From: Candidatus Latescibacter anaerobius SCGC AAA252-E07
Lineage (GTDB): Bacteria; Latescibacterota; Latescibacteria; Latescibacterales; Latescibacteraceae
DNA length: 51,363 bases
Assembly: GCA_000403035.1 (NCBI GenBank)
Contig: AQSL01000164.1
Coordinates: 1-51,363, forward strand
Direction: 5' to 3'
Under the pieces are notes generated by a model. The model searched no databases. It saw only the letters and a program-made list of their open reading frames with translations, and was not told the origin of the DNA. This document shows, piece after piece, positions 8,411 to 48,150 of this stretch. A program made the translations under genes and the position numbers. Position 1 is the stretch's first letter; every line of letters begins with the position of its first letter.

Positions 8411-9742
8411 TTACTTAACAAGAAGCATCTTGCCTTTCTTTTCAAATCCTTCCGCCGCGAACCGGTAGAAATACATCCCCGATGCAAGGTTCGAGCCTTC
8501 GAATGTCACCGAATGTGTACCGGCGCTCATGTGACCGTCAACAAGAGTGGCGACCTTCTGGCCGGTAATAGAATAGACAAATAACATTACTCTCGATGGC
8601 TCGACGATCCGATAGGTGATCGTCGTCACCGGATTGAACGGATTGGGATACGAGAAAATTCTTGTAGAAAATATTATCGGTTTATCTGACTCGACATTGG
8701 TAATGTCAAGTGAAGAAGAGCTTATTCTCAATAGACCTCCATTGGTTTCGCTCCCAACATTAAATCCTATCCATACCATTCCGTCAGGTGTGATAGCCAT
8801 AGTATTAGAAAATGGCCACTTAAGTTCTTCGAAAAGCACGGAAGATATCTCACTCATATTATATTCATACCATTGGTTGTTTTTTAATTTTGCGAGTCTG
8901 TTATGATTTAAAATACCTAAAAAACCTCGCCAAATATACCCGTCAGATCCATAACTCAGCATCCCAACGGACGAACCGGATAATAATAATGACCAAGAAT
9001 CATTTGAAAACTTATATAAATCATCATTACAATTGGCATACATATCTCCACTTTCAGGATCCTGTATTATCCATTGCACATCTGTCCACCCCAAATCTGA
9101 AATCGGCAAGCCATTCCAATCAGAATAATGATAAAAATTAACACCATCGAAGTAGGATATCCCTTTAGGGCAGTTGTCACCCGTATCTCCAACACAATCT
9201 ATTTGATCAAAAGAATTATTATATACAATCCATACCCCACCTTCCATAGTTGCTGTAATTCGACCAATATATTTTTGGAGCAATCCTTCTCGATACGTTA
9301 ATATTTCATTTCCATCAAATTTTGCAGGATAATAGTATCCCGTTTCATATAATACAAGCCATAAAGTGTTGTCCGGCCCCGCGGATATTTCTTGAATGCT
9401 ATTCGGAATTTCCATGTCCTTCGAATAATATGTCCATTCAATACCATTAAAACAGGAAATATTTCCTCCATCTGCAAACCACAAAAGACCATCAGGAGAT
9501 GCAGAAACCAATGACGCGCCACCAGAAATTTCGGTAAAATTTTCCCAGTTGGATCCGTTATAGCGGAAAACAAGACCGCCTGAGCACACCCAGAGAAAGC
9601 CGTCTTTATCGACAGCCAATGATTGACGACTGCTAAACAGTGGATGCCCCAAAATTTCTTTATACAATTCATATTCGGCGCAATCCGCAGAAAAAACGGG
9701 GAAAACTAGTAATAATACTATACAAAGTAAAACAACTCTCAT
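8411..9742 (-). CDS. Secreted beta-propeller-like protein with a T9SS type-A C-terminal sorting domain
   Basis: The C-terminus NPFNPVTTITYRI...ITGQKVATLVDG...SGMYFYRF...KKGKMLLVK is a typical T9SS/FlgD-Ig-like CTD. Repeated G(F/L)LW...G motifs resemble Reg_prop repeats. The start is taken at MRVVLLCIVLL (signal peptide) with a GGAGG RBS. Confidence 0.75.
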   Translation of the reverse strand: MRVVLLCIVLLLVFPVFSADCAEYELYKEILGHPLFSSRQSLAVDKDGFLWVCSGGLVFRYNGSNWENFTEISGGASLVSASPDGLLWFADGGNISCFNGIEWTYYSKDMEIPNSIQEISAGPDNTLWLVLYETGYYYPAKFDGNEILTYREGLLQKYIGRITATMEGGVWIVYNNSFDQIDCVGDTGDNCPKGISYFDGVNFYHYSDWNGLPISDLGWTDVQWIIQDPESGDMYANCNDDLYKFSNDSWSLLLSGSSVGMLSYGSDGYIWRGFLGILNHNRLAKLKNNQWYEYNMSEISSVLFEELKWPFSNTMAITPDGMVWIGFNVGSETNGGLLRISSSSLDITNVESDKPIIFSTRIFSYPNPFNPVTTITYRIVEPSRVMLFVYSITGQKVATLVDGHMSAGTHSVTFEGSNLASGMYFYRFAAEGFEKKGKMLLVK

Positions 9743-9826
9743 TAATGATATTCCTCCGGTTATAAACCATGTCCAACCTTTTCGATATATTATTATTTCA
9801 CGAAAGGTAGGCACAAATCAGTATCA

Positions 9827-9864
9827 CGTCAAATCATTTCTGGGCCCCCTTTCCATACAGTATG
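9827..9864 (-). promoter_or_regulatory. 38-nt conserved upstream motif, copy 1 (includes a TTGACG -35-like hexamer)
   Basis: 37 of 38 nt identical to 10760-10797. On the gene strand it reads CATACTGTATGGAAAGGGGGCCCAGAAATGATTTGACG, followed after 17 nt by TACCTT. It lies about 85 nt upstream of the start at 9742. Confidence 0.4.
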
Positions 9865-9955: not shown

Positions 9956-10684
9956 CTATAAATTATTTTTCCCAAAATCATTTACTGGTATTTCTTCAAA
10001 TAGACCCTGTTTATCTTTTTTTACACACAACAACGGCTCTATGCATCCTCGTTTCCGCAGTAAATACCACTTAAAAAGCGGTGGATACGCCATTCCTTCT
10101 ATTTTAATATCCCATGACTGGTTGATATATCGCCAGATTAATCCAAGGGTTTCGACATCCTCACAAAAGCAAAACCATGAATCATCTGTCTTAATACCAT
10201 ATTCAGGATGTGTTTCATCAAGCCACTGCACTATCTCTGCGGACAGTATTTTATTGAATCCTATATGACGAATAAATGGATCTGGGAGATCAGTAATGAT
10301 TATTTGAACTGTTTTTGTATCTATGATCCCCGCATGCTGGTATATAATGCTTATCCAATATTCGCCGGGGGTCGCAGTTGTGTTCGGATAAACTTCGATT
10401 TCTTCGACCATTTTATCCATTGAGAGTACTGATTTATCGGGAATGAGTGTAATATTTTCATCAGTTCCAAACAAGAGATCAACATCTCCGGCGAAATCCG
10501 TATTTGGTTCCAGCGAAATAAGTACCAGCCCACCACCGGCGGGGTAGCTTTTAAACTGAAGCGGCGAAATTGAAATCTCAAAAGAACCTTTATCCTCTAT
10601 CTTTTTTGAATCGTTACCAAGTACGCAACCTATTAAAAATATTACAATCAAGAAATAGCAGATGACAGAAAAAATACTTTTCAT
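9956..10684 (-). CDS. Hypothetical lipoprotein
   Basis: Signal peptide with a lipobox-like LIGC. No recognisable domain. Confidence 0.6.
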   Translation of the reverse strand: MKSIFSVICYFLIVIFLIGCVLGNDSKKIEDKGSFEISISPLQFKSYPAGGGLVLISLEPNTDFAGDVDLLFGTDENITLIPDKSVLSMDKMVEEIEVYPNTTATPGEYWISIIYQHAGIIDTKTVQIIITDLPDPFIRHIGFNKILSAEIVQWLDETHPEYGIKTDDSWFCFCEDVETLGLIWRYINQSWDIKIEGMAYPPLFKWYLLRKRGCIEPLLCVKKDKQGLFEEIPVNDFGKNNL

Positions 10685-10759
10685 TATTTTTTCTCCTTAA
10701 ATAACTTTCCCAACTTTCATACATCAATCTCTCAAGAAAGTTAAGCACAAAAAATATTT

Positions 10760-10797
10760 CGTCAAGTCATTTCTGGGCCCCCTTTCCATACAGTATG
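10760..10797 (-). promoter_or_regulatory. 38-nt conserved upstream motif, copy 2
   Basis: Same motif as 9827-9864, about 77 nt upstream of the lipoprotein start. On the gene strand it gives TTGACG-N16-TAACTT. Confidence 0.4.
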
Positions 10798-11017: not shown

Positions 11018-14000
11018 ATGAAATCGCAAACAATTGTTCCTGTGGTACTATTTGCGTTAAAGTGTTTAACCGGAACACCCTCTGGTGCGGAAACCGTTCT
11101 CGAACCGTTCACGTACAGCCAGAATTTCGAAACCCGCGAGCTTTCGGCATGGGCATCCTACCCTATCTGGCAGGATGCCGCATACGATGAAAAGATGCGT
11201 GTTAACACCATTGTTCCGGGCGACCCGAATATTTCCCTGGAACAGATGGTTATTCCCTATTCGAATGTGGATAACTATGCGGGCGCACAGAAAAAACTGG
11301 ATATGTACCTTGTTCCCGGATCGACCATCTCTCTCAGATATTACCTGAAAACACAGTTGCACGTTGCATTTTTCAAGGTGCGCCTTGCAGCCGGACCTGA
11401 TGGAAAAGTTGATTATACCGTGCCGGGTCCCCCGACAAACAGATGGGTATGGCTTACGGTACAGTACACCGATTTCATCAGGGAAAATCCCCGTCTCAAG
11501 GGCAAAAACATAAAGGTGAACGCCCTTGCGGTACTGGCAAAATTCCCGGATGCCGATCCTTCCATGTGTCTCTACCTCGGTCTCGATGATATTGTTTTCG
11601 ATGGCGCACGGGCAATGCATTTCCAGTTTTACGAGCCGGAAATGTACAAGCTTTCAGAATGGAAACCCTATATTCCGAACATACATTATCAAAAGAATGA
11701 TTCGTTCACGCTCTCCGGGCAATGGCCTCTGAACGCCGACAACGTTTCCCTTGAAATCGCATATTTTACCGATCCATCGAAAACTGTTTTCAAAAGCAAC
11801 CTGAAGAAGAAAAATGACACCTGGTCTTTGAATAAACTCACACTTGCTTTCCCGGAAGGGCTTTACCATGGGACCCTCACCGCATATAAAAGCAAAAAGA
11901 AACTGTCGGATACCGGGTTTACCCTCTACATCGCCCCCAAACATATCGGAGGCAATCATCCCCGCCTCTGGTTCGACAGCAGCGGTGAAAAAAGAATTAA
12001 AAGCCGCCTCTCCGATGAACGGTTCAGGGAGGTAAAAGACCATATTCTGTCGAACGCAGAAAAATCAAGAAAAGACTATCCGGTTGAGGATATTGTGTAC
12101 GATATCGACCAGTTCCCGGAAGAGGAATGGATACCGACACTGACTCCATGGTTTAACCGTATCAGGGGTTGGGGCGGGAGTATCTACAACAATGCTCTCG
12201 CTTATAAGCTTTTGGATGATACAGAAGCAGGCATCTATGCGAAAGACATATTCCTGAAAATATGCACATTCCCGACATGGCTTCATCCCTGGATGCATAA
12301 ACGCGGCAGGCACATCTACTATCCGATAGGCGAATTGGGCATGGAACTCGCCATAGGATATGACCTGCTCTATAGTCTTTTCGATGAAAACGAGCATACT
12401 GTTCTACAAAACGCACTGATGAAACAGATTATTCAGGGTGCCCATAAAGGGTATGTCGAAGATGACCTTGTCACCTGCAACACATCGAACTGGGTTGCCC
12501 ATATCACCGGCGGCTCGCTTATGTGCCAGGGAGTACTGTACGGCGATAAACATGATTTCGGATGTATGGAGCCGTATTTTACCGGAATAATACTCAAGAA
12601 CTATGATTTGATTCAGAAGGTTATCGACAGTGACGGCGCATACGGGGAAGGATATGGCTACTATAATTTTTCGATGCTCTCCTGGTCAAAAAGTCTGCCG
12701 GCGGTCGAACATGTTTTTAACGTTGATTTATCCGGCAAAATTGATAAATCCTATCGTGAATTACTATGGGCTGGAGTAGTCAAAGAGAAAAATTACTTTT
12801 ATTTCGGCGACACAGGCGGAAATTTAGGACCGCTGACCAACTGGGCATGGCTGCTTGACAAATACAAAGACCCGCGCCTGGGATGGTTGTACAATCATCT
12901 CAAGAACGGAGAAACCTTCATGGATGTGCTCTATGAAACCAGAGATGTGCCGAAACAGGATCCTTTCGATGAAAAACCGGTCACGTTTTTCAGAAATATC
13001 GGTACAACCGTTTTCAAAAGCGGGTGGGACAGTGATGATTTCGTGTTCGTTATGCGGACAGGACCGTTCATAAATCACCAGCACCTTGACCAGGGTTCGT
13101 TCTGGTTGCGAGACAGGGGCAGCACATTCATCGAAGAGCGCCACGGCTCGACCTATTACATGCAGAAACTGTATCAGTCCCATTACATACAGCCGATAGC
13201 TCACTCGACTATCTTACTCGATAACAATTATCAGAGCCAGCGCACGGGTGACCCGCTTGTGTTTGCCCAAGGATTTGAGGATTATGCGTTTCTTGAACAG
13301 TTTCTCGATGGTGAAAACGCCGCATTCAGTTCCGGAAACATCGGAAGACTGTACTGGGGAAACGTAAAGGAAATGACGCGCAACGTGCTCTACCTGAAAC
13401 CGCGAACTCTCCTGATGGTGGATGTGATAATCCCGGCAGACCGTGATGTTGAAGCGAAGCTCCTCTATCAGACACACTATCTCAATGACATAACTGCATG
13501 TGACACTCTTTCAACCATTCAAAAGGACGGAAACATACTGCATATACTGCATGTTTATCCGGAACATATCGATGTAAAAGCCGAGGAAATGCCCCATTTT
13601 TATTATACACTCCTGAACGAAAAACAACTGAAGAAAGAAGGATTTTTAAGCGTTTCCGCAAAAACAACCGGCAATCCGCTTGTTATGGCGAATATCTTAA
13701 CGACCGTCACCGGTGAAAAGCCAGCTCTTTCCGCGGATACACATGACGGTTTTGTGAAGGGTGCTATCAACGGCAAACCGTATGTTTTTTCTACAAAACC
13801 CGGATTTGTGTACGATGCCGGTGATTGTATTACTGATGCACTTGCTGTTACATGGGATGGATCAAGGTTTTTTGCCGCAAAATGTACATCGTTTGAAAAA
13901 CCCGGCTCATTTTCTCTATATTCAAATAAAGCAATTACCTGCGAAATATCGAGGAATCAAATACATTACTATCATAGCGAAGAAGATGAAGTAGTATTCA

Positions 14001-14065
14001 TTGATGACAGAGGGAAAAAATATACCCGTACTTTACCAGCCGGTGAAGGAACGGAAACATTTTAA
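11018..14065 (+). CDS. Heparinase II/III-like polysaccharide lyase family protein (large, secreted)
   Basis: Signal peptide and an N-terminal region of about 300 aa with no assignable domain. HPRLWF, an alginate-lyase-like helical region and the INHQHLDQGSFWL motif are typical of the heparinase II/III C-terminal domain. Confidence 0.75.
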   Translation: MKSQTIVPVVLFALKCLTGTPSGAETVLEPFTYSQNFETRELSAWASYPIWQDAAYDEKMRVNTIVPGDPNISLEQMVIPYSNVDNYAGAQKKLDMYLVPGSTISLRYYLKTQLHVAFFKVRLAAGPDGKVDYTVPGPPTNRWVWLTVQYTDFIRENPRLKGKNIKVNALAVLAKFPDADPSMCLYLGLDDIVFDGARAMHFQFYEPEMYKLSEWKPYIPNIHYQKNDSFTLSGQWPLNADNVSLEIAYFTDPSKTVFKSNLKKKNDTWSLNKLTLAFPEGLYHGTLTAYKSKKKLSDTGFTLYIAPKHIGGNHPRLWFDSSGEKRIKSRLSDERFREVKDHILSNAEKSRKDYPVEDIVYDIDQFPEEEWIPTLTPWFNRIRGWGGSIYNNALAYKLLDDTEAGIYAKDIFLKICTFPTWLHPWMHKRGRHIYYPIGELGMELAIGYDLLYSLFDENEHTVLQNALMKQIIQGAHKGYVEDDLVTCNTSNWVAHITGGSLMCQGVLYGDKHDFGCMEPYFTGIILKNYDLIQKVIDSDGAYGEGYGYYNFSMLSWSKSLPAVEHVFNVDLSGKIDKSYRELLWAGVVKEKNYFYFGDTGGNLGPLTNWAWLLDKYKDPRLGWLYNHLKNGETFMDVLYETRDVPKQDPFDEKPVTFFRNIGTTVFKSGWDSDDFVFVMRTGPFINHQHLDQGSFWLRDRGSTFIEERHGSTYYMQKLYQSHYIQPIAHSTILLDNNYQSQRTGDPLVFAQGFEDYAFLEQFLDGENAAFSSGNIGRLYWGNVKEMTRNVLYLKPRTLLMVDVIIPADRDVEAKLLYQTHYLNDITACDTLSTIQKDGNILHILHVYPEHIDVKAEEMPHFYYTLLNEKQLKKEGFLSVSAKTTGNPLVMANILTTVTGEKPALSADTHDGFVKGAINGKPYVFSTKPGFVYDAGDCITDALAVTWDGSRFFAAKCTSFEKPGSFSLYSNKAITCEISRNQIHYYHSEEDEVVFIDDRGKKYTRTLPAGEGTETF

Positions 14066-14282
14066 GAGGGCGGTAAAAAAGTATTTTCACGCGCCCCGGC
14101 TTGTAATATATGACTGTGTTGCTGTCAAGGGCAAGACAAGCCGGCCATACATAAAAATTGTTATTTATTATTGACTTACCCCTTGTAATATATTCTCTTT
14201 ATTCATGCTAATTATACTTTATTGGCCGGCCCTTGACAGCTTAAATTCTGACCCTGATAGTTTTTCACAACGCTTTTAAAAG
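14062..14282 (+). repeat. Modular intergenic repeat, copy A (long subfamily)
   Basis: TTAAGAGGGCGGTAAAAAAG..TTTTCACGCGCCCC hairpin, then GCTGTCAAGGGC...GCCGGCC, a 77-nt AT-rich insert, then GGCCGGCCCTTGACAGC. Ends with N17-GATAGT-TTTTTCAC. Its first TTAA contains the lyase stop codon. Confidence 0.85.
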
Positions 14283-15185: not shown

Positions 15186-15337
15186 CTTAAGAGGGCGGTG
15201 AAGAAATCCTTTTTCACGCACCCTGTAATGAAATATATATCGTTTGTAGCTGTCAAGGGCATGTAAATCAAGGCTTCGCTCTGACCCTTGACAGCTTGAA
15301 TCATGAAACTGATAGTTTTTCACCAGAATTTTAAATA
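15186..15337 (+). repeat. Modular intergenic repeat, copy B (short subfamily)
   Basis: About 90 percent identical to copy C over the first 75 nt. The 11-bp arms GCTGTCAAGGG (15249-15259) and CCCTTGACAGC (15285-15295) pair. Ends with TTGACA-N17-GATAGT-TTTTTCACC. Confidence 0.85.
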
Positions 15338-22345: not shown

Positions 22346-22496
22346 CTTAAGAGGGCGGTGAAAAGGCCCTTTTTCACGCACCCTGTAATGAAATATATAT
22401 CGTTTGTTGCTGTCAAGGGCTTGTAAATCAACGCTTTGCGTTGACCTTTGACAGCTTAAGTCCAGAAACTTATAATTTTTCACAAGGCTTTTTAAT
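22346..22496 (+). repeat. Modular intergenic repeat, copy C (short subfamily)
   Basis: All modules are present. The inner hairpin TCAACGC-TTT-GCGTTGA is perfect. The right arm carries a G-to-U-compatible change (CCTTTGACAGC). Confidence 0.85.
22448..22476 (+). promoter_or_regulatory. Perfect consensus sigma70-type promoter inside repeat copy C
   Basis: TTGACA (22448-22453), a 17-nt spacer, then TATAAT (22471-22476). It points towards the 3' end of the convergent HD gene. Confidence 0.4.
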
Positions 22497-32565: not shown

Positions 32566-32738
32566 TATAAAACGTGGTGAAAAACCACCTTAGGAGAGGA
32601 ACATGCTGTCAAGGGTCAGCGCGAAGCACTGCTTTACTTGCCCTTGACAGCGTATGTAGGGGTAGGGCTTGACTCTACCCTAAATATAGATTTCATACAT
32701 GGGTGCGTGAAAAAGGTCTTTTTCACCGCCCTCTTAAG
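32566..32738 (-). repeat. Modular intergenic repeat, copy D (inverted orientation)
   Basis: The reverse complement carries all modules, plus an extra small hairpin insert (GGGTAG..CTACCC) in module 2. The -10-like hexamer is degenerate (GGTGGT). Confidence 0.8.
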
Positions 32739-41715: not shown

Positions 41716-42353
41716 TCGAAAAAATATATACGTTTTTCACTTTTTTTACAAATGATTTCAATTTCTTTTGTTGTTACAAAGTTCATAATCATTACTGTTA
41801 TTCATCATGATGCTCTTTTAATAAATGTATTGAGTTACACTGATACTATTCGAATTATATATGATTATATATTGATAATTTTTAAGTTCTGTAAAAAAAA
41901 CAATCAAGTTTCATGTTTAATCTGTCGAGGGTCACCGTGAAGTTTTCATTTACATGCACTTGTCAGTAACACATGATTATACTATTTACTAATTACAAAA
42001 CAATTATTTAATTCTTATCATTGATACTGATTTCCCGTTTTCGTAATCTATTGTAAAAATAATCTATATAAAGAGCACAACACAATTTTATTCATTCATA
42101 CATGGATTTTCAAGGATTATCTGTAATCCTCTGCAAATCCGATTTTCAAACATATCATCTTAATACAAAATTGTTTATCTTGACCATACATGCTAAATAC
42201 TATATTATTAGACATCCGTGAAAAATATTTTTCATTTAAAAAAGTGTAAATTGTGCAGTTACTAAAAAAACATACTATTTGTTTTTTTCGATTACATCAA
42301 GATTAAAAAGTCAAGTATTTTAATGTACAAATACCTTTAGTATAAGGCAAAAT

Positions 42354-44051
42354 ATGGCATTTTCAATACCCGATAAAATTTTTAAATTTCTCTACTTTTT
42401 GCTTTCGATTCTTTCAATTGTAGGTGTAATTGAAATTTTACTTGTGAAAGGTTTTTTCTTCGAAAAACCTGATTATTTACTGATAATTACTCTCATTACA
42501 CATATTTCAATAATTACGCTTTATTTATTCTGGATAGCAGGGAGTATCTTAAAAACCGGTTGGAATCCAAGAACAATAATGCCTGACCTCATTCTTACAG
42601 GTCTTCTTGTGGTCATGAAATTTCCCGTTCAACTGGGAGGAAGTCTCGTTTCATTCAGAATTATCTTTTCGCTTGCCGCCGTTTTTTTTAAAAGAACCCA
42701 AATATCTACATTTTTTGCACAGATACGTCTTAATCCCTCAAGGCTTCTTATTCTATCGTTTATAGCGGCAATACTGGTTGGAGTTATGCTTTTGATGTTT
42801 CCTGCAGCAACAGTAGATCATAGAGGGGCGAGCTTTGTAGATGCTGTTTTTACATCAACTTCCGCAGTATGTGTAACCGGGCTCATCGTACAGGACACCG
42901 GTTCCTTTTTTTCAGTTTTCGGGCAGATAATAATTGCAATACTTATACAACTCGGCGGACTCGGGATTATGACATTTTCCAGCCTGTTTGCAATGATTGT
43001 TGGCAGACATTTGGGTTTAATGCATGAAGAACACATGCGTGGGATACTGGACCAGGGCAACAGAGTTGATATATACAAGCTCATTTCACATATTATCATT
43101 ATAACTGTAGTCTTCGAATCATTTGGCGCTTTTCTCCTTTTTTTCAAATGGCTGCCGGGTATGAGTATTCAGAATGCCGCATTTGATGCGGTTTTCCATT
43201 CCATTTCCGCATTTTGCAACGCTGGATTCAGTCTCTATTCCGACAGTCTCTCACGGTATGTCGATGATGTCTATGTAAATGTGGTTTTTATGACACTTAT
43301 AATTTTTGGCGGACTCGGATTTTTTGTAATCAATGATCTACGACAAAATTCCCGTCATTTTAATCCGCTTTCAATACGATGGCACCGGATTTCAGCTCAC
43401 ACGAAAATTGTAATAATAACCACTATGTTCCTTTTGTTTACAGGCACATTGTTTGTTTTCTTTTTTGAATTTGACAACACCATGCTGAAACTTTCAACAT
43501 CGGGTAAACTTTTAGCCGCTGCGTTTCAATCCGTCACTTTACGTACCGCGGGTTTTAATACTTTAGAAATCAGCGGTTTAAAAGATACGACTCTTTTCCT
43601 GTGTATTGTGCTGATGTTTATTGGTGCTTCACCTTCTTCTACCGGTGGAGGGATTAAAACGACAACGTTTGCCGTTCTGATTCTGTCGGTGCGTTCATTA
43701 TTATTATCAAGGAATAAAGTTGAGGTGTTCAACAGAACAATTTCCTCCCAGACAGTCTATAAATCTGTTGCAATTTTACTTTTTTCATCTTCATTTCTTA
43801 TTTTATTCTGTGTATTGTTACTCGAAACACAGGAGGGCTCTTTTTTGGATATTCTATTTGAGGCTACTTCAGCAATTGGTACAGTCGGACTTTCCACCGG
43901 TGTAACCAACCATCTCAACGGAATCGGGAAAATTCTCGTATCATTACTGATGTTTATCGGCAGAGTTGGACCTCTGACCGTTGCTCTTGCGCTCGGAGAG
44001 GTGAGAAAAGTAAATGTAGAGTTTCCTTCAACAAACATATCTGTCGGATAA
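42354..44051 (+). CDS. trkH: TrkH/KtrB family potassium transporter subunit
   Basis: 565 aa polytopic protein with repeated selectivity-filter-like motifs (TGL, GLG, NAGF, STGGGIKT, TVGLSTG). Confidence 0.9.
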   Translation: MAFSIPDKIFKFLYFLLSILSIVGVIEILLVKGFFFEKPDYLLIITLITHISIITLYLFWIAGSILKTGWNPRTIMPDLILTGLLVVMKFPVQLGGSLVSFRIIFSLAAVFFKRTQISTFFAQIRLNPSRLLILSFIAAILVGVMLLMFPAATVDHRGASFVDAVFTSTSAVCVTGLIVQDTGSFFSVFGQIIIAILIQLGGLGIMTFSSLFAMIVGRHLGLMHEEHMRGILDQGNRVDIYKLISHIIIITVVFESFGAFLLFFKWLPGMSIQNAAFDAVFHSISAFCNAGFSLYSDSLSRYVDDVYVNVVFMTLIIFGGLGFFVINDLRQNSRHFNPLSIRWHRISAHTKIVIITTMFLLFTGTLFVFFFEFDNTMLKLSTSGKLLAAAFQSVTLRTAGFNTLEISGLKDTTLFLCIVLMFIGASPSSTGGGIKTTTFAVLILSVRSLLLSRNKVEVFNRTISSQTVYKSVAILLFSSSFLILFCVLLLETQEGSFLDILFEATSAIGTVGLSTGVTNHLNGIGKILVSLLMFIGRVGPLTVALALGEVRKVNVEFPSTNISVG

Positions 44052-44165
44052 AACACATGGAAAGAACATCGGAATATCACATTATCATCGGGGAAATATA
44101 ATAATTCTTCAATCATAACAGAATATGAAACCACGTGCAAAAAGAGCGAGGTTGTAAAAGAATGT

Positions 44166-44386
44166 GAGGAGGGCGGTGAAAAAGTCTTTTCACACGCCCC
44201 TGTTTGAAATATATGTCTGTGGTGCTGTCAAGGGCAAGACAAGCTGGCCTTTATGTAATTACATTGTATTTCAATATATTACTGCAAACAGAAATTTGTC
44301 GGTTCTTTAAAAACCGTGCTGCAAGGGCCAGCTCTTGACAGCGCATTACCCGGAGATTATGAGTTTTTCACCAGACTTTTAGAAGC
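44166..44386 (+). repeat. Modular intergenic repeat, copy E (long subfamily)
   Basis: Same architecture as copy A. The inner stem is GCTGGCC/GGCCAGC, a compensated change versus GCCGGCC/GGCCGGC in A. It has a 76-nt AT-rich insert and ends with TTGACA-N17-TATGAG-TTTTTCACC. Confidence 0.85.
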
Positions 44387-44589
44387 ATTAGGAAAAAATA
44401 ACATTTGTATTTTTTATGTTGTTTTGTGAATACTGTATAAATCTTTTTTGCATGTAATGATTTTAATTAAACCGGATATACTTTATATACGATATATGAA
44501 TGTGCTGGCTCCGGAATATAGGTACTTTGCAGGCATAGATTTGTAGCTGCATGATCCGTACTAATACTTATTGCATAAAGGTAAAAAAA

Positions 44590-47664: not shown

Positions 47665-47954
47665 AATGTATTCTTTTCGTAAGAGTCATAGGGCAAAAGC
47701 ATAGAATTGAAAAAAATCGACAGTAGTCGCTGATTGCTCAAATCCATGCGATTACATAGATGCCTGCCCCCCGAAATCCAATTTAGTGATAAACGAAAGC
47801 AGAGTAAGTTATACAGTTTAAAATAAGAAAACGTGATTATCTCCAATTGAATTTGAACTTACGATGCATGTAAAAAATGGGGGATCGCCAGGATAATTAA
47901 CAGCACTTGATTTTCTTTCACTCAGAATCTATATTATTTGCTTAATTTCATTAT

Positions 47955-48150
47955 GAAGGTGACGGAGAAAAAGATTATTTTTTTACGTACCCTCGAATGA
48001 AATGCATGACTTCTGTTGCTGTCATCGGTCTATTCGACCCGACAAGCCAGTCTCGTCGACCAGGCAGAAGAGCAAGTAAATCAACGTTTCTTGCTTACCC
48101 TCGACAGTTTAAATCCTGATCCTGATAGTATTTCTCAGGACTTTAATATA
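47955..48150 (+). repeat. Modular intergenic repeat, copy F (degenerate)
   Basis: Recognisable remnants of every module: GGAGAAAAAG..TTTTTTACGTACCC, GAATGAAATGCATGACTTCTGTTGCTGTCA, CAAGTAAATCAACG and CCCTCGACAG-N17-GATAGT. It ends 24 nt before parA. Confidence 0.55.

Follow-up and report, generated by a model that had tools for sequence, protein, structure and literature searches.

How does a small nested hairpin come to keep its base pairing through compensatory changes, and does it do so as an RNA? These questions are raised by positions 14121-14240 of a 51,363-nt stretch of Candidatus Latescibacter anaerobius SCGC AAA252-E07 (contig AQSL01000164.1 of assembly GCA_000403035.1), called here the window. 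An earlier reading of the letters alone, the original prediction, had placed the hairpin in one of five copies of a repeat and had proposed selection on its structure, possibly at the RNA level. In copy A the hairpin, M2, consists of an 11-bp outer stem, an 8-nt bulge, a 7-bp inner stem and a 77-nt loop (14121-14240). A smaller hairpin, M1, lies to its left. The explanation that fits best, and that we regard as probable, is that M2 is the central hairpin of a single copy of a DNA transposon that is non-autonomous, a MITE (miniature inverted-repeat transposable element). The MITE family is previously undescribed. Action of the hairpin on the plus strand or at the RNA level is not supported.

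Seven copies of the repeat were located in the window (Table 1) by searching for repeats and motifs and with a sequence profile. The five copies known from the original prediction (A to E) were recovered, and two more, F and G, had been missed. Further copies were collected from metagenome contigs, mostly from sediments, with an exact pattern spanning the M1 right arm to the M2 left arm. At least 120 loci matched, nearly all of them true copies. A profile built from the metagenome loci gave at least 148 matches in ~0.8 Mb, of which at least 112 were full length. Among the matches listed, 92 distinct canonical short copies were aligned (alignment A1), 2 from the window and 90 from metagenomes, and their subfamilies tracked the source sample. 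The consensus starts with M1 (GAGGGCGGTGAAAAAG, loop, TTTTTCACGCGCCC), followed by a left spacer of ~24 nt with a conserved GAAAT, M2 (GCTGTCAAGGG, CATGTAAA, TCAGCRC, TTY, GYGCTGA, CCCTTGACAGC), a spacer of ~22 nt and finally TTTTTCACCAGGCTT. Between subfamilies, the M2 outer arms, the bulge and the pairing of the inner stem were conserved, while the spacers diverged by a quarter or more. The 11-bp outer arms were near-invariant, and the 8-nt bulge was >90% conserved despite being unpaired. The motif GCTGTCAAGGGC occurred 13 times at up to 2 mismatches, against 1.85 expected.

Prokaryotic MITEs are defined as elements of less than ~500 bp without a transposase gene, with terminal inverted repeats (TIRs) of ~4-30 bp and, at least in younger copies, flanking direct repeats; they are AT-rich, intergenic and multi-copy, and have stem-loops (PMC10969869, section 2.1). 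The element fits this definition. Its length was 145-222 bp, with 145-148 bp for the short form and about 218-220 bp for the long form, and no transposase gene lies inside it. It is AT-rich and intergenic, contains stem-loops, and was present in 7 copies per 51 kb in the window and in at least 112 full copies in the metagenome loci. The TIRs are imperfect and ~15 bp long, the right end being an inverted copy of the left with the core GGTGAAAAA. Compared with the reverse complement of the right end AAGCCTGGTGAAAAA, the left end GAGGGCGGTGAAAAA matched at 11 of 15 positions, and at 12 of 15 in one subfamily. Left and right TIRs co-varied (pair 24-164, GC 46, TA 11), a pattern that DNA recognition sites can give without any RNA.

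The insertions were flanked by target site duplications (TSDs) of 4 bp. The 4 nt before GAGGG were identical to the 4 nt after GGCTT in 42 of the 92 copies; over 2000 permutations, the average was 13.6 and the highest count 23. When the left flank was other than TTAA, an exact TSD was found in 20 of 54 copies, where 3.2 were expected. Non-palindromic flanking pairs (CTGA/CTGA, TTCA/TTCA, AGAA/AGAA, TTAC/TTAC, ATAA/ATAA) are true direct duplications and not extensions of the TIRs. The preferred target was TTAA, then TTAG, ATAA, TTCA and CTAA. Metagenome locus L042 carries the same pair of heparinase-like and SDR genes that surrounds copy A, with a copy between them at another site, 11 nt further on and with TSD TTCG. 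The TSD of copy A is TTAA at the stop codon, and the two are therefore independent insertions. Filled and empty versions of orthologous intergenic regions were also found (L046 vs L098, L053 vs L069), the empty sites being too diverged for base-exact alignment. Loci L130 and L131, with the orthologous SDR gene, had no copy and a different synteny, so that they could not serve as empty sites for A and B.

The pairings described for the window copies were confirmed, with small corrections. The inner stem is GCCGGCC/GGCCGGC in copy A (14140-14146 and 14224-14230) and GCTGGCC/GGCCAGC in copy E (44243-44249 and 44326-44332), a C-G to T-A change at one pair. Core hairpins of short copies, said to pair still, do so in copy C (TCAACGC-TTT-GCGTTGA) and in copy D (minus strand, CAGTGC-TTC-GCGCTG, with one T.G wobble), but imperfectly in copy B, where CAAGGC/GCTCTG has one A.C and one G.T. 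The right arms of copies C (CCTTTGACAGC) and E (CTCTTGACAGC) each have a T opposite a left-arm G, and the M1 loops are GTA, AATCC, GGCC, GACC and GTC, all as reported before. As copy A was drawn in the original prediction, the 7-bp inner stem and the 11-bp outer stem both make use of C14230, which can form only one of the two pairs.

On the alignment of 92 copies, RNAalifold predicted the outer M2 stem only. The inner stem and M1 were therefore named by hand, and this structure was then counted against slid partner columns and against 500 shuffles. Standard pairs made up 94.5% of the stem cells, compared with 38-49% with slid partner columns. Nine pairs had changed on both sides (5.2 ± 1.3 in the shuffles, 4 of the 500 reaching nine), as had 79 cells (29.9 ± 9.8, none of the 500 reaching 79). 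The signal was concentrated in the inner stem, where double changes occurred in five of seven pairs: 106-114 (CG 54, UA 20), 107-113 (GC 45, AU 39), 104-116 (AU 82, GC 4), 105-115 and 102-119. In the M2 outer stem, 98.3% of the cells were paired, and the M1 pair 23-51 was CG in 56, UA in 7, CA in 21 and UG in 3 copies. The short copies had five perfectly paired 6-bp versions of the inner stem (CAGCAC/GTGCTG, CAGTGC/GCACTG, CAGCGC/GCGCTG, CGGCGC/GCGCCG, CAACGC/GCGTTG), and the long copies had two further ones, GCCGGCC and GCTGGCC. Fold z-scores ranged from -2.6 to -5.4. As the copies are paralogues made in bursts, the changes represent few independent events, roughly one per variant. The base pairing of the hairpin is thus maintained through compensatory changes, as had been claimed from the window copies.

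The second half of the claim, that the G-T pairs of copies C and E point to a folded plus-strand RNA, did not stand. Substitutions compatible with either strand, which the original prediction itself had named as evidence against it, are what the alignment contains: wobble-type mismatches showed no preference for the plus strand. Over all three helices, there were 40 G.T cells and 80 C.A cells, the latter being G.U only on the minus strand, and the standard-pair fraction of 94.5% on the plus strand compared with about 95.9% on the minus strand. Private differences from the subfamily consensus, in columns outside the search pattern, gave 19 G.T vs 25 A.C. When sorted by the sense of the flanking genes, 25 were G.U in the RNA vs 36 that were A.C. 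Plus and minus strands folded equally well.

C-to-T was the commonest substitution in unpaired columns. Given the many C of the right arm CCCTTGACAGC, mutation alone predicts the G.T of copies C and E. In copy E, the G.T is a private C-to-T. Its orthologue L036, with the same left flank and inner stem, still reads CCCTTGACAGC, and the change is therefore demonstrably recent. L036 shares the left flank and copy E with window positions 44003-44395 at 93% identity. The homology does not extend past the element's right end, and divergence is much higher in its right third than in the left. The break at the repeat suggests recombination between copies or another rearrangement, or a chimeric assembly, and is uninformative here.

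Selection at individual loci was assessed from singleton substitutions, the best proxy for changes after insertion. In the two large subfamilies, they affected 1.79% of the inner stem and 1.89% of the spacers, a ratio of 0.95. With equal rates in both, there was no sign of structural selection at individual loci. An early estimate of lower substitution in the stems was due in part to the search pattern and to the structure of the subfamilies, and was replaced by non-ascertained columns and singletons. The decayed copies F and G are tolerated.

In the RNA-level view, to which the original prediction leaned, co-transcribed M1 and M2 would stabilise, terminate or direct the cleavage of mRNA, for example by RNase III, and the pairing would be kept by selection on the structure of the RNA. 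The predicted folds are strong and the changes compensatory, and many copies lie in same-strand gene pairs, 7-45 nt from start codons, a placement which makes it probable that they are transcribed. Correia and ERIC elements offer precedents (PMC10969869, section 4.1; PMC2229807). Nevertheless, G.U was not preferred on the plus or on the transcribed strand, singletons struck the inner stem at the rate of the spacers, and decay is tolerated in copies F and G. Orientation to the genes was unconstrained as well: 35 copies lay in tandem sense contexts, 23 in tandem antisense, 12 in divergent and 12 in convergent ones, which is not the fixed orientation or position of a cis-regulatory RNA. An Rfam search of the window at gathering thresholds returned two tRNAs only and no family for the element, and at E-values up to 1 only a chance match to a plant miRNA precursor (18 bits vs a threshold of 50). 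An intrinsic terminator was ruled out, with no T run after either hairpin. We consider action at the RNA level unlikely.

The compensatory changes might also have arisen by mutation. Template switching or gene conversion between the arms of a quasi-palindrome would regenerate stems without constraint, and quasi-palindrome mutagenesis is an established mechanism. All variable pairs lie within a short near-perfect palindrome, one-sided intermediates exist (CAGCGC/GCACTG in 7 copies), and purifying selection was absent from inserted copies. Palindrome instability was seen too, in a copy without M2 and in nested palindrome insertions. However, such a process leaves the conserved unpaired bulge and the near-invariant 11-bp outer arms unexplained. 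The inner stem of the long variant is, moreover, wholly replaced by other complementary sequence, which is beyond arm-to-arm correction. A mutational origin is rather unlikely.

According to the MITE explanation, the element consists of left TIR GAGGGCGGTGAAAAAG, an inverted copy of it (forming M1), an AT-rich spacer, M2, a second spacer and right TIR TTTTTCACCAGGCTT. It inserts at TTAA-like sites with a 4-bp duplication, as the flanking sequences show. Mobilisation would be in trans, by a DDE-type transposase presumably encoded elsewhere in the genome. Inner-stem pairing would be preserved as only lineages keeping the palindrome go on making new copies. Mobilisation may require the hairpin or inverted repeat, for instance because the transposase or a host factor recognises it or because single-stranded DNA folds into the hairpin, and arm-to-arm self-correction of the palindrome may contribute further. 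Once inserted, a copy would decay neutrally, the G.T of copies C and E being ordinary C-to-T decay. We infer that the constraint acts on the lineages that still propagate, and not on each inserted locus.

Several points weigh against this explanation or against the numbers behind it. M2 and its unpaired bulge were more conserved between subfamilies than the right TIR, which a purely TIR-driven model does not predict. The exact collection pattern covered the M1 right arm and the M2 left arm, and conservation estimates for those arms are therefore biased. Cell counts in the covariation analysis are not event counts, the copies being paralogues, and the analysis of gene contexts used crude gene calls from open reading frames. 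Neither the window nor the ~0.8 Mb of loci nor the viral contigs yielded an autonomous insertion sequence (IS) sharing the TIRs. The search for such a partner in the loci included TIR pairs 0.6-3.5 kb apart, solo TIRs and multi-copy proteins, and gave nothing convincing. It could be argued that M2 with its invariant 8-nt bulge, and not the TIRs, is the main determinant of the element's success. M2 would then be a structure-specific module recognised by the transposase or by some host factor, or else a hairpin of RNA or DNA that these genomes have co-opted between genes regardless of its orientation, and the stem of the long variant may scaffold interchangeable, unrelated ~77-nt loops. We find this improbable.

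The right arm of M2 also contains a promoter-like sequence. In 66 of the 92 copies, TTGACA was followed 16-18 nt on by GATAGT or GATATT, facing right. A left-facing promoter from the M2 left arm was ruled out (3 of 92 copies). The match to the promoter consensus was perfect in copy C (TTGACA-17-TATAAT) and 10/12 in copies A and B. As a side property of the MITE, an outward sigma-70-like promoter is plausible on these motif matches. A bolder version would make the whole element a portable promoter or operator, with TTGACA as -35 box, GATAKT as -10 box and the palindrome as the site of a dimeric regulator; copies would persist by virtue of driving or regulating the gene downstream. Five of the six full copies in the window do face the start of the downstream gene, and Correia elements carry promoters (PMC10969869, section 4.1). 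Yet across the family the bias toward gene starts was weak, at 55 to 40, and twelve copies, including B, lay between convergent genes. One subfamily had no -10 match at all, and an AT-rich genome yields many consensus matches, which are not functional evidence. We give the portable promoter a low probability.

Among known elements, the MITE can be compared with Correia/NEMIS of Neisseria. Both are small, AT-rich, non-coding and mostly intergenic, with TIRs and a TSD, and in both an internal segment distinguishes the long form from the short one (here 145 bp for the short and about 220 bp for the long form). Strong hairpin potential and outward sigma-70-like sequences are shared as well (PMC2229807; PMC10969869). 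Correia elements have forms of ~107 and 155 bp, a TA duplication and TIRs of 24-26 bp, and are known to be cleaved by RNase III and bound by IHF (PMC2229807). In contrast, the present element has no sequence similarity to them, its main hairpin is the internal palindrome M2 instead of a TIR-TIR duplex, and its TIRs are imperfect. Membership in Correia/NEMIS was ruled out by the TSD, which is 4 bp at TTAA-like sites and not TA, and by the TIR length of ~15 bp. ERIC/IRU and RUP are likewise imperfect palindromes of 100-150 bp with TIRs and a TSD, co-transcribed with their neighbours. For RUP, mobilisation in trans has been attributed to an IS sharing its TIRs, as a likely mechanism (PMC2229807). 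Host phylum, sequence, TSD and internal architecture are all different here, and no partner IS was found. A possible lead is offered by the IS5 family (IS5/IS427 group), whose 4-bp duplication at a YTAR/TTAA-like, AT-rich target and ~16-bp TIRs of the type GAG/GGA...GAAAAAG the element resembles. Unlike in MITEs derived from that family, there was no IS5-family transposase or matching full-length IS in the window or the loci.

REPINs have no TSD and no such TIRs, and are characterised by a 5' GTAG motif and a tie to a RAYT gene. The element resembles REP/REPIN in being an abundant intergenic palindrome with two hairpins, whose stems show compensatory variation. It could accordingly be taken for a REP/REPIN palindrome moved by a RAYT (Y1) transposase, or for an end fragment of IS200/IS605. 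But it has the 4-bp TSD and the TIRs that REP/REPIN and IS200/IS605 lack, its arms have no 5' GTAG, M1 and M2 are unrelated in sequence, and the window has no RAYT gene. Such an origin is highly improbable. Integron attC sites occur in one-orientation arrays, each after a cassette, and have RYYYAAC/GTTRRRY cores. An attC site was ruled out, as copies lie on both strands among housekeeping genes, with no such cores at their ends. M1 was also ruled out as a parS site, its half-sites being in the opposite arrangement to those of the parS consensus.

Searches outside the sediment metagenomes gave chance matches or none. In a collection of representative genomes, which does not include that of the host, the pattern from M1 right arm to M2 left arm matched six times, by chance and in unrelated taxa. 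Viral contigs had 1 match to the pattern and 86 to a TIR 15-mer; none was recognised by the family profile, and all are therefore chance. A plasmid BLAST search with copy C gave no match. Full-text literature searches for the motifs returned only unrelated primer sequences, and a search on Latescibacteria and MITE found no published MITE description.

Table 1 Repeat copies in the window and the parts of copy A. Coordinates are window positions.
Feature	Position	Strand	Description
Copy A	14062-14279	+	Long form; coordinates include both TSDs
Copy B	15187-15334	+	Short form; TSD TTAA/TTAA; between convergent SDR and sodium:solute symporter genes
Copy C	22347-22494	+	Short form; flanks TTAA/TTTA; inner stem CAACGC/GCGTTG; TTGACA-17-TATAAT
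Copy D	32566-32737	-	Short form; ~25-nt hairpin insertion in left spacer
Copy E	44165-44382	+	Long form; between trkH and trkA; inner stem GCTGGCC/GGCCAGC
Copy F	47954-48147	+	Degenerate; ~43-nt insertion in M2 left arm; upstream of parA
Copy G	41880-41967	-	Partial and decayed; consists of M2 and the right end
Copy A, left TSD	14062-14065		TTAA
Copy A, left TIR	14066-14081	+	GAGGGCGGTAAAAAAG; matches reverse complement of right end in core GGTGAAAAA plus AG
Copy A, M1 hairpin	14068-14096	+	Left TIR paired with its inverted copy alongside (TTTTCACGCGCCC); variable loop
Copy A, M2 outer stem, left arm	14121-14131	+	GCTGTCAAGGG
Copy A, unpaired 8-nt bulge	14132-14139	+	CAAGACAA in long copies, CATGTAAA in short copies
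Copy A, inner stem, left arm	14140-14146	+	GCCGGCC
Copy A, loop insert	14147-14223	+	77 nt, AT-rich; hallmark of long variant
Copy A, inner stem, right arm	14224-14230	+	GGCCGGC
Copy A, M2 outer stem, right arm	14230-14240	+	CCCTTGACAGC; holds TTGACA (14233-14238), -35-box-like
Copy A, -10-box-like GATAGT	14256-14261	+	17 nt after TTGACA, outward to the right
Copy A, right TIR	14261-14275	+	TTTTTCACAACGCTT
Copy A, right TSD	14276-14279		TTAA

All copies in the window were intergenic, between annotated genes, with no Pfam-recognisable gene inside, and the repeat occupied ~2.3% of the window. The insertion point of copy A coincides with the stop codon of a heparinase-like gene upstream (11018-14065, 1015 aa), whose TAA is supplied by the TTAA duplication. 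Copy D is located upstream of the gene for class II fructose-bisphosphate aldolase. The loop inserts of the two long copies, 77 nt in A and 76 nt in E (44250-44325), are held in the same stem frame, GACAAGCYGGCC ... GGCCRGC. No homology between the two inserts was detectable, shuffled sequence scoring as well in alignment. Sequences resembling the insert of A recurred in L044, L050 and L111, and one like that of E in L036. The additional small hairpin of copy D, GGGTAGAGTCAAGCCCTACCC, lies at 32655-32690 on the minus strand, and the ~43-nt insertion of copy F at about 48025-48067. The element seems prone to nested insertions.

Unusual copies were also present among the metagenome loci, including some with other small palindromes nested inside. 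In L021, L031 and L042, from one sediment metagenome, the right half of M2 was replaced by a different palindrome, (C)TGTAGGGGCACGTTGCAACGTGCCCCTACAG. It starts with GTAG like REP elements and may be a second repeat family of that genome. A palindrome with the same arms as M2, GGCTGTCAAGGGCGCCCGCGG ... CCCTTGACTGCC, beside TTTTCACCCCCCC, was found at 2310-2540 of L081, a contig rich in GC that comes from another environment; the likeness may be coincidental, or the palindrome may be distantly related to M2. On the minus strand of L105 (~offset 588 in minus-strand reading), a copy had both TIRs and lacked precisely M2. L038 (minus strand, ~offset 1459 in minus-strand reading) contained a solo M1-like mini-element of ~30 nt, TTAA-GGGGCTGTGAAAATACTTTTTCACCACCC. 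These two suggest that M1 alone is a minimal TIR pair. Tandem copies, in which the right end abuts the next left end with 4 nt between, occurred in L008 (about 733-775, TTAA) and L101 (about 2598-2640, CTAG). Their upstream partners have no M2, and there may be a second element type with the same TIRs.

The window itself is ordinary chromosome of 51 kb with two tRNAs. Its products include ribosomal proteins L9, S6 and L25 and peptidyl-tRNA hydrolase, and it also encodes an H+-pyrophosphatase, a class II fructose-bisphosphate aldolase, TrkH/TrkA and ParA/ParB, as well as sugar-acid and polysaccharide-degradation genes. No transposase gene was found among the window genes. The nearest named relatives of the SDR protein adjoining copy A were 70-76% identical and came from metagenome-assembled genomes of Candidatus Latescibacteria/Latescibacterota. 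On this one protein, the host probably belongs to that phylum. Separate from the MITE, a 43-nt direct repeat (TATYWCGTCAARTCATTTCTGGGCCCCCTTTCCATACAGTATG, 93% identical) was present at 9822-9864 and 10755-10797, one copy just upstream of each of two neighbouring minus-strand genes, 8411-9814 and 9956-10684. The former carries a Por secretion tail and the latter has no Pfam match. The two genes may be paralogues that share the 43-nt repeat as leader or promoter.

The family serves as a worked example that compensatory changes in a repeat family alone do not show selection at the RNA level. The covariation lies between subfamilies, and inserted copies decay neutrally without strand-specific wobble. 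At the density seen in the window, there would be hundreds of copies per genome in this uncultured sediment lineage. Elements of this kind will break metagenome assemblies and can mimic structured RNAs in covariation screens, and they may donate promoters to neighbouring genes.

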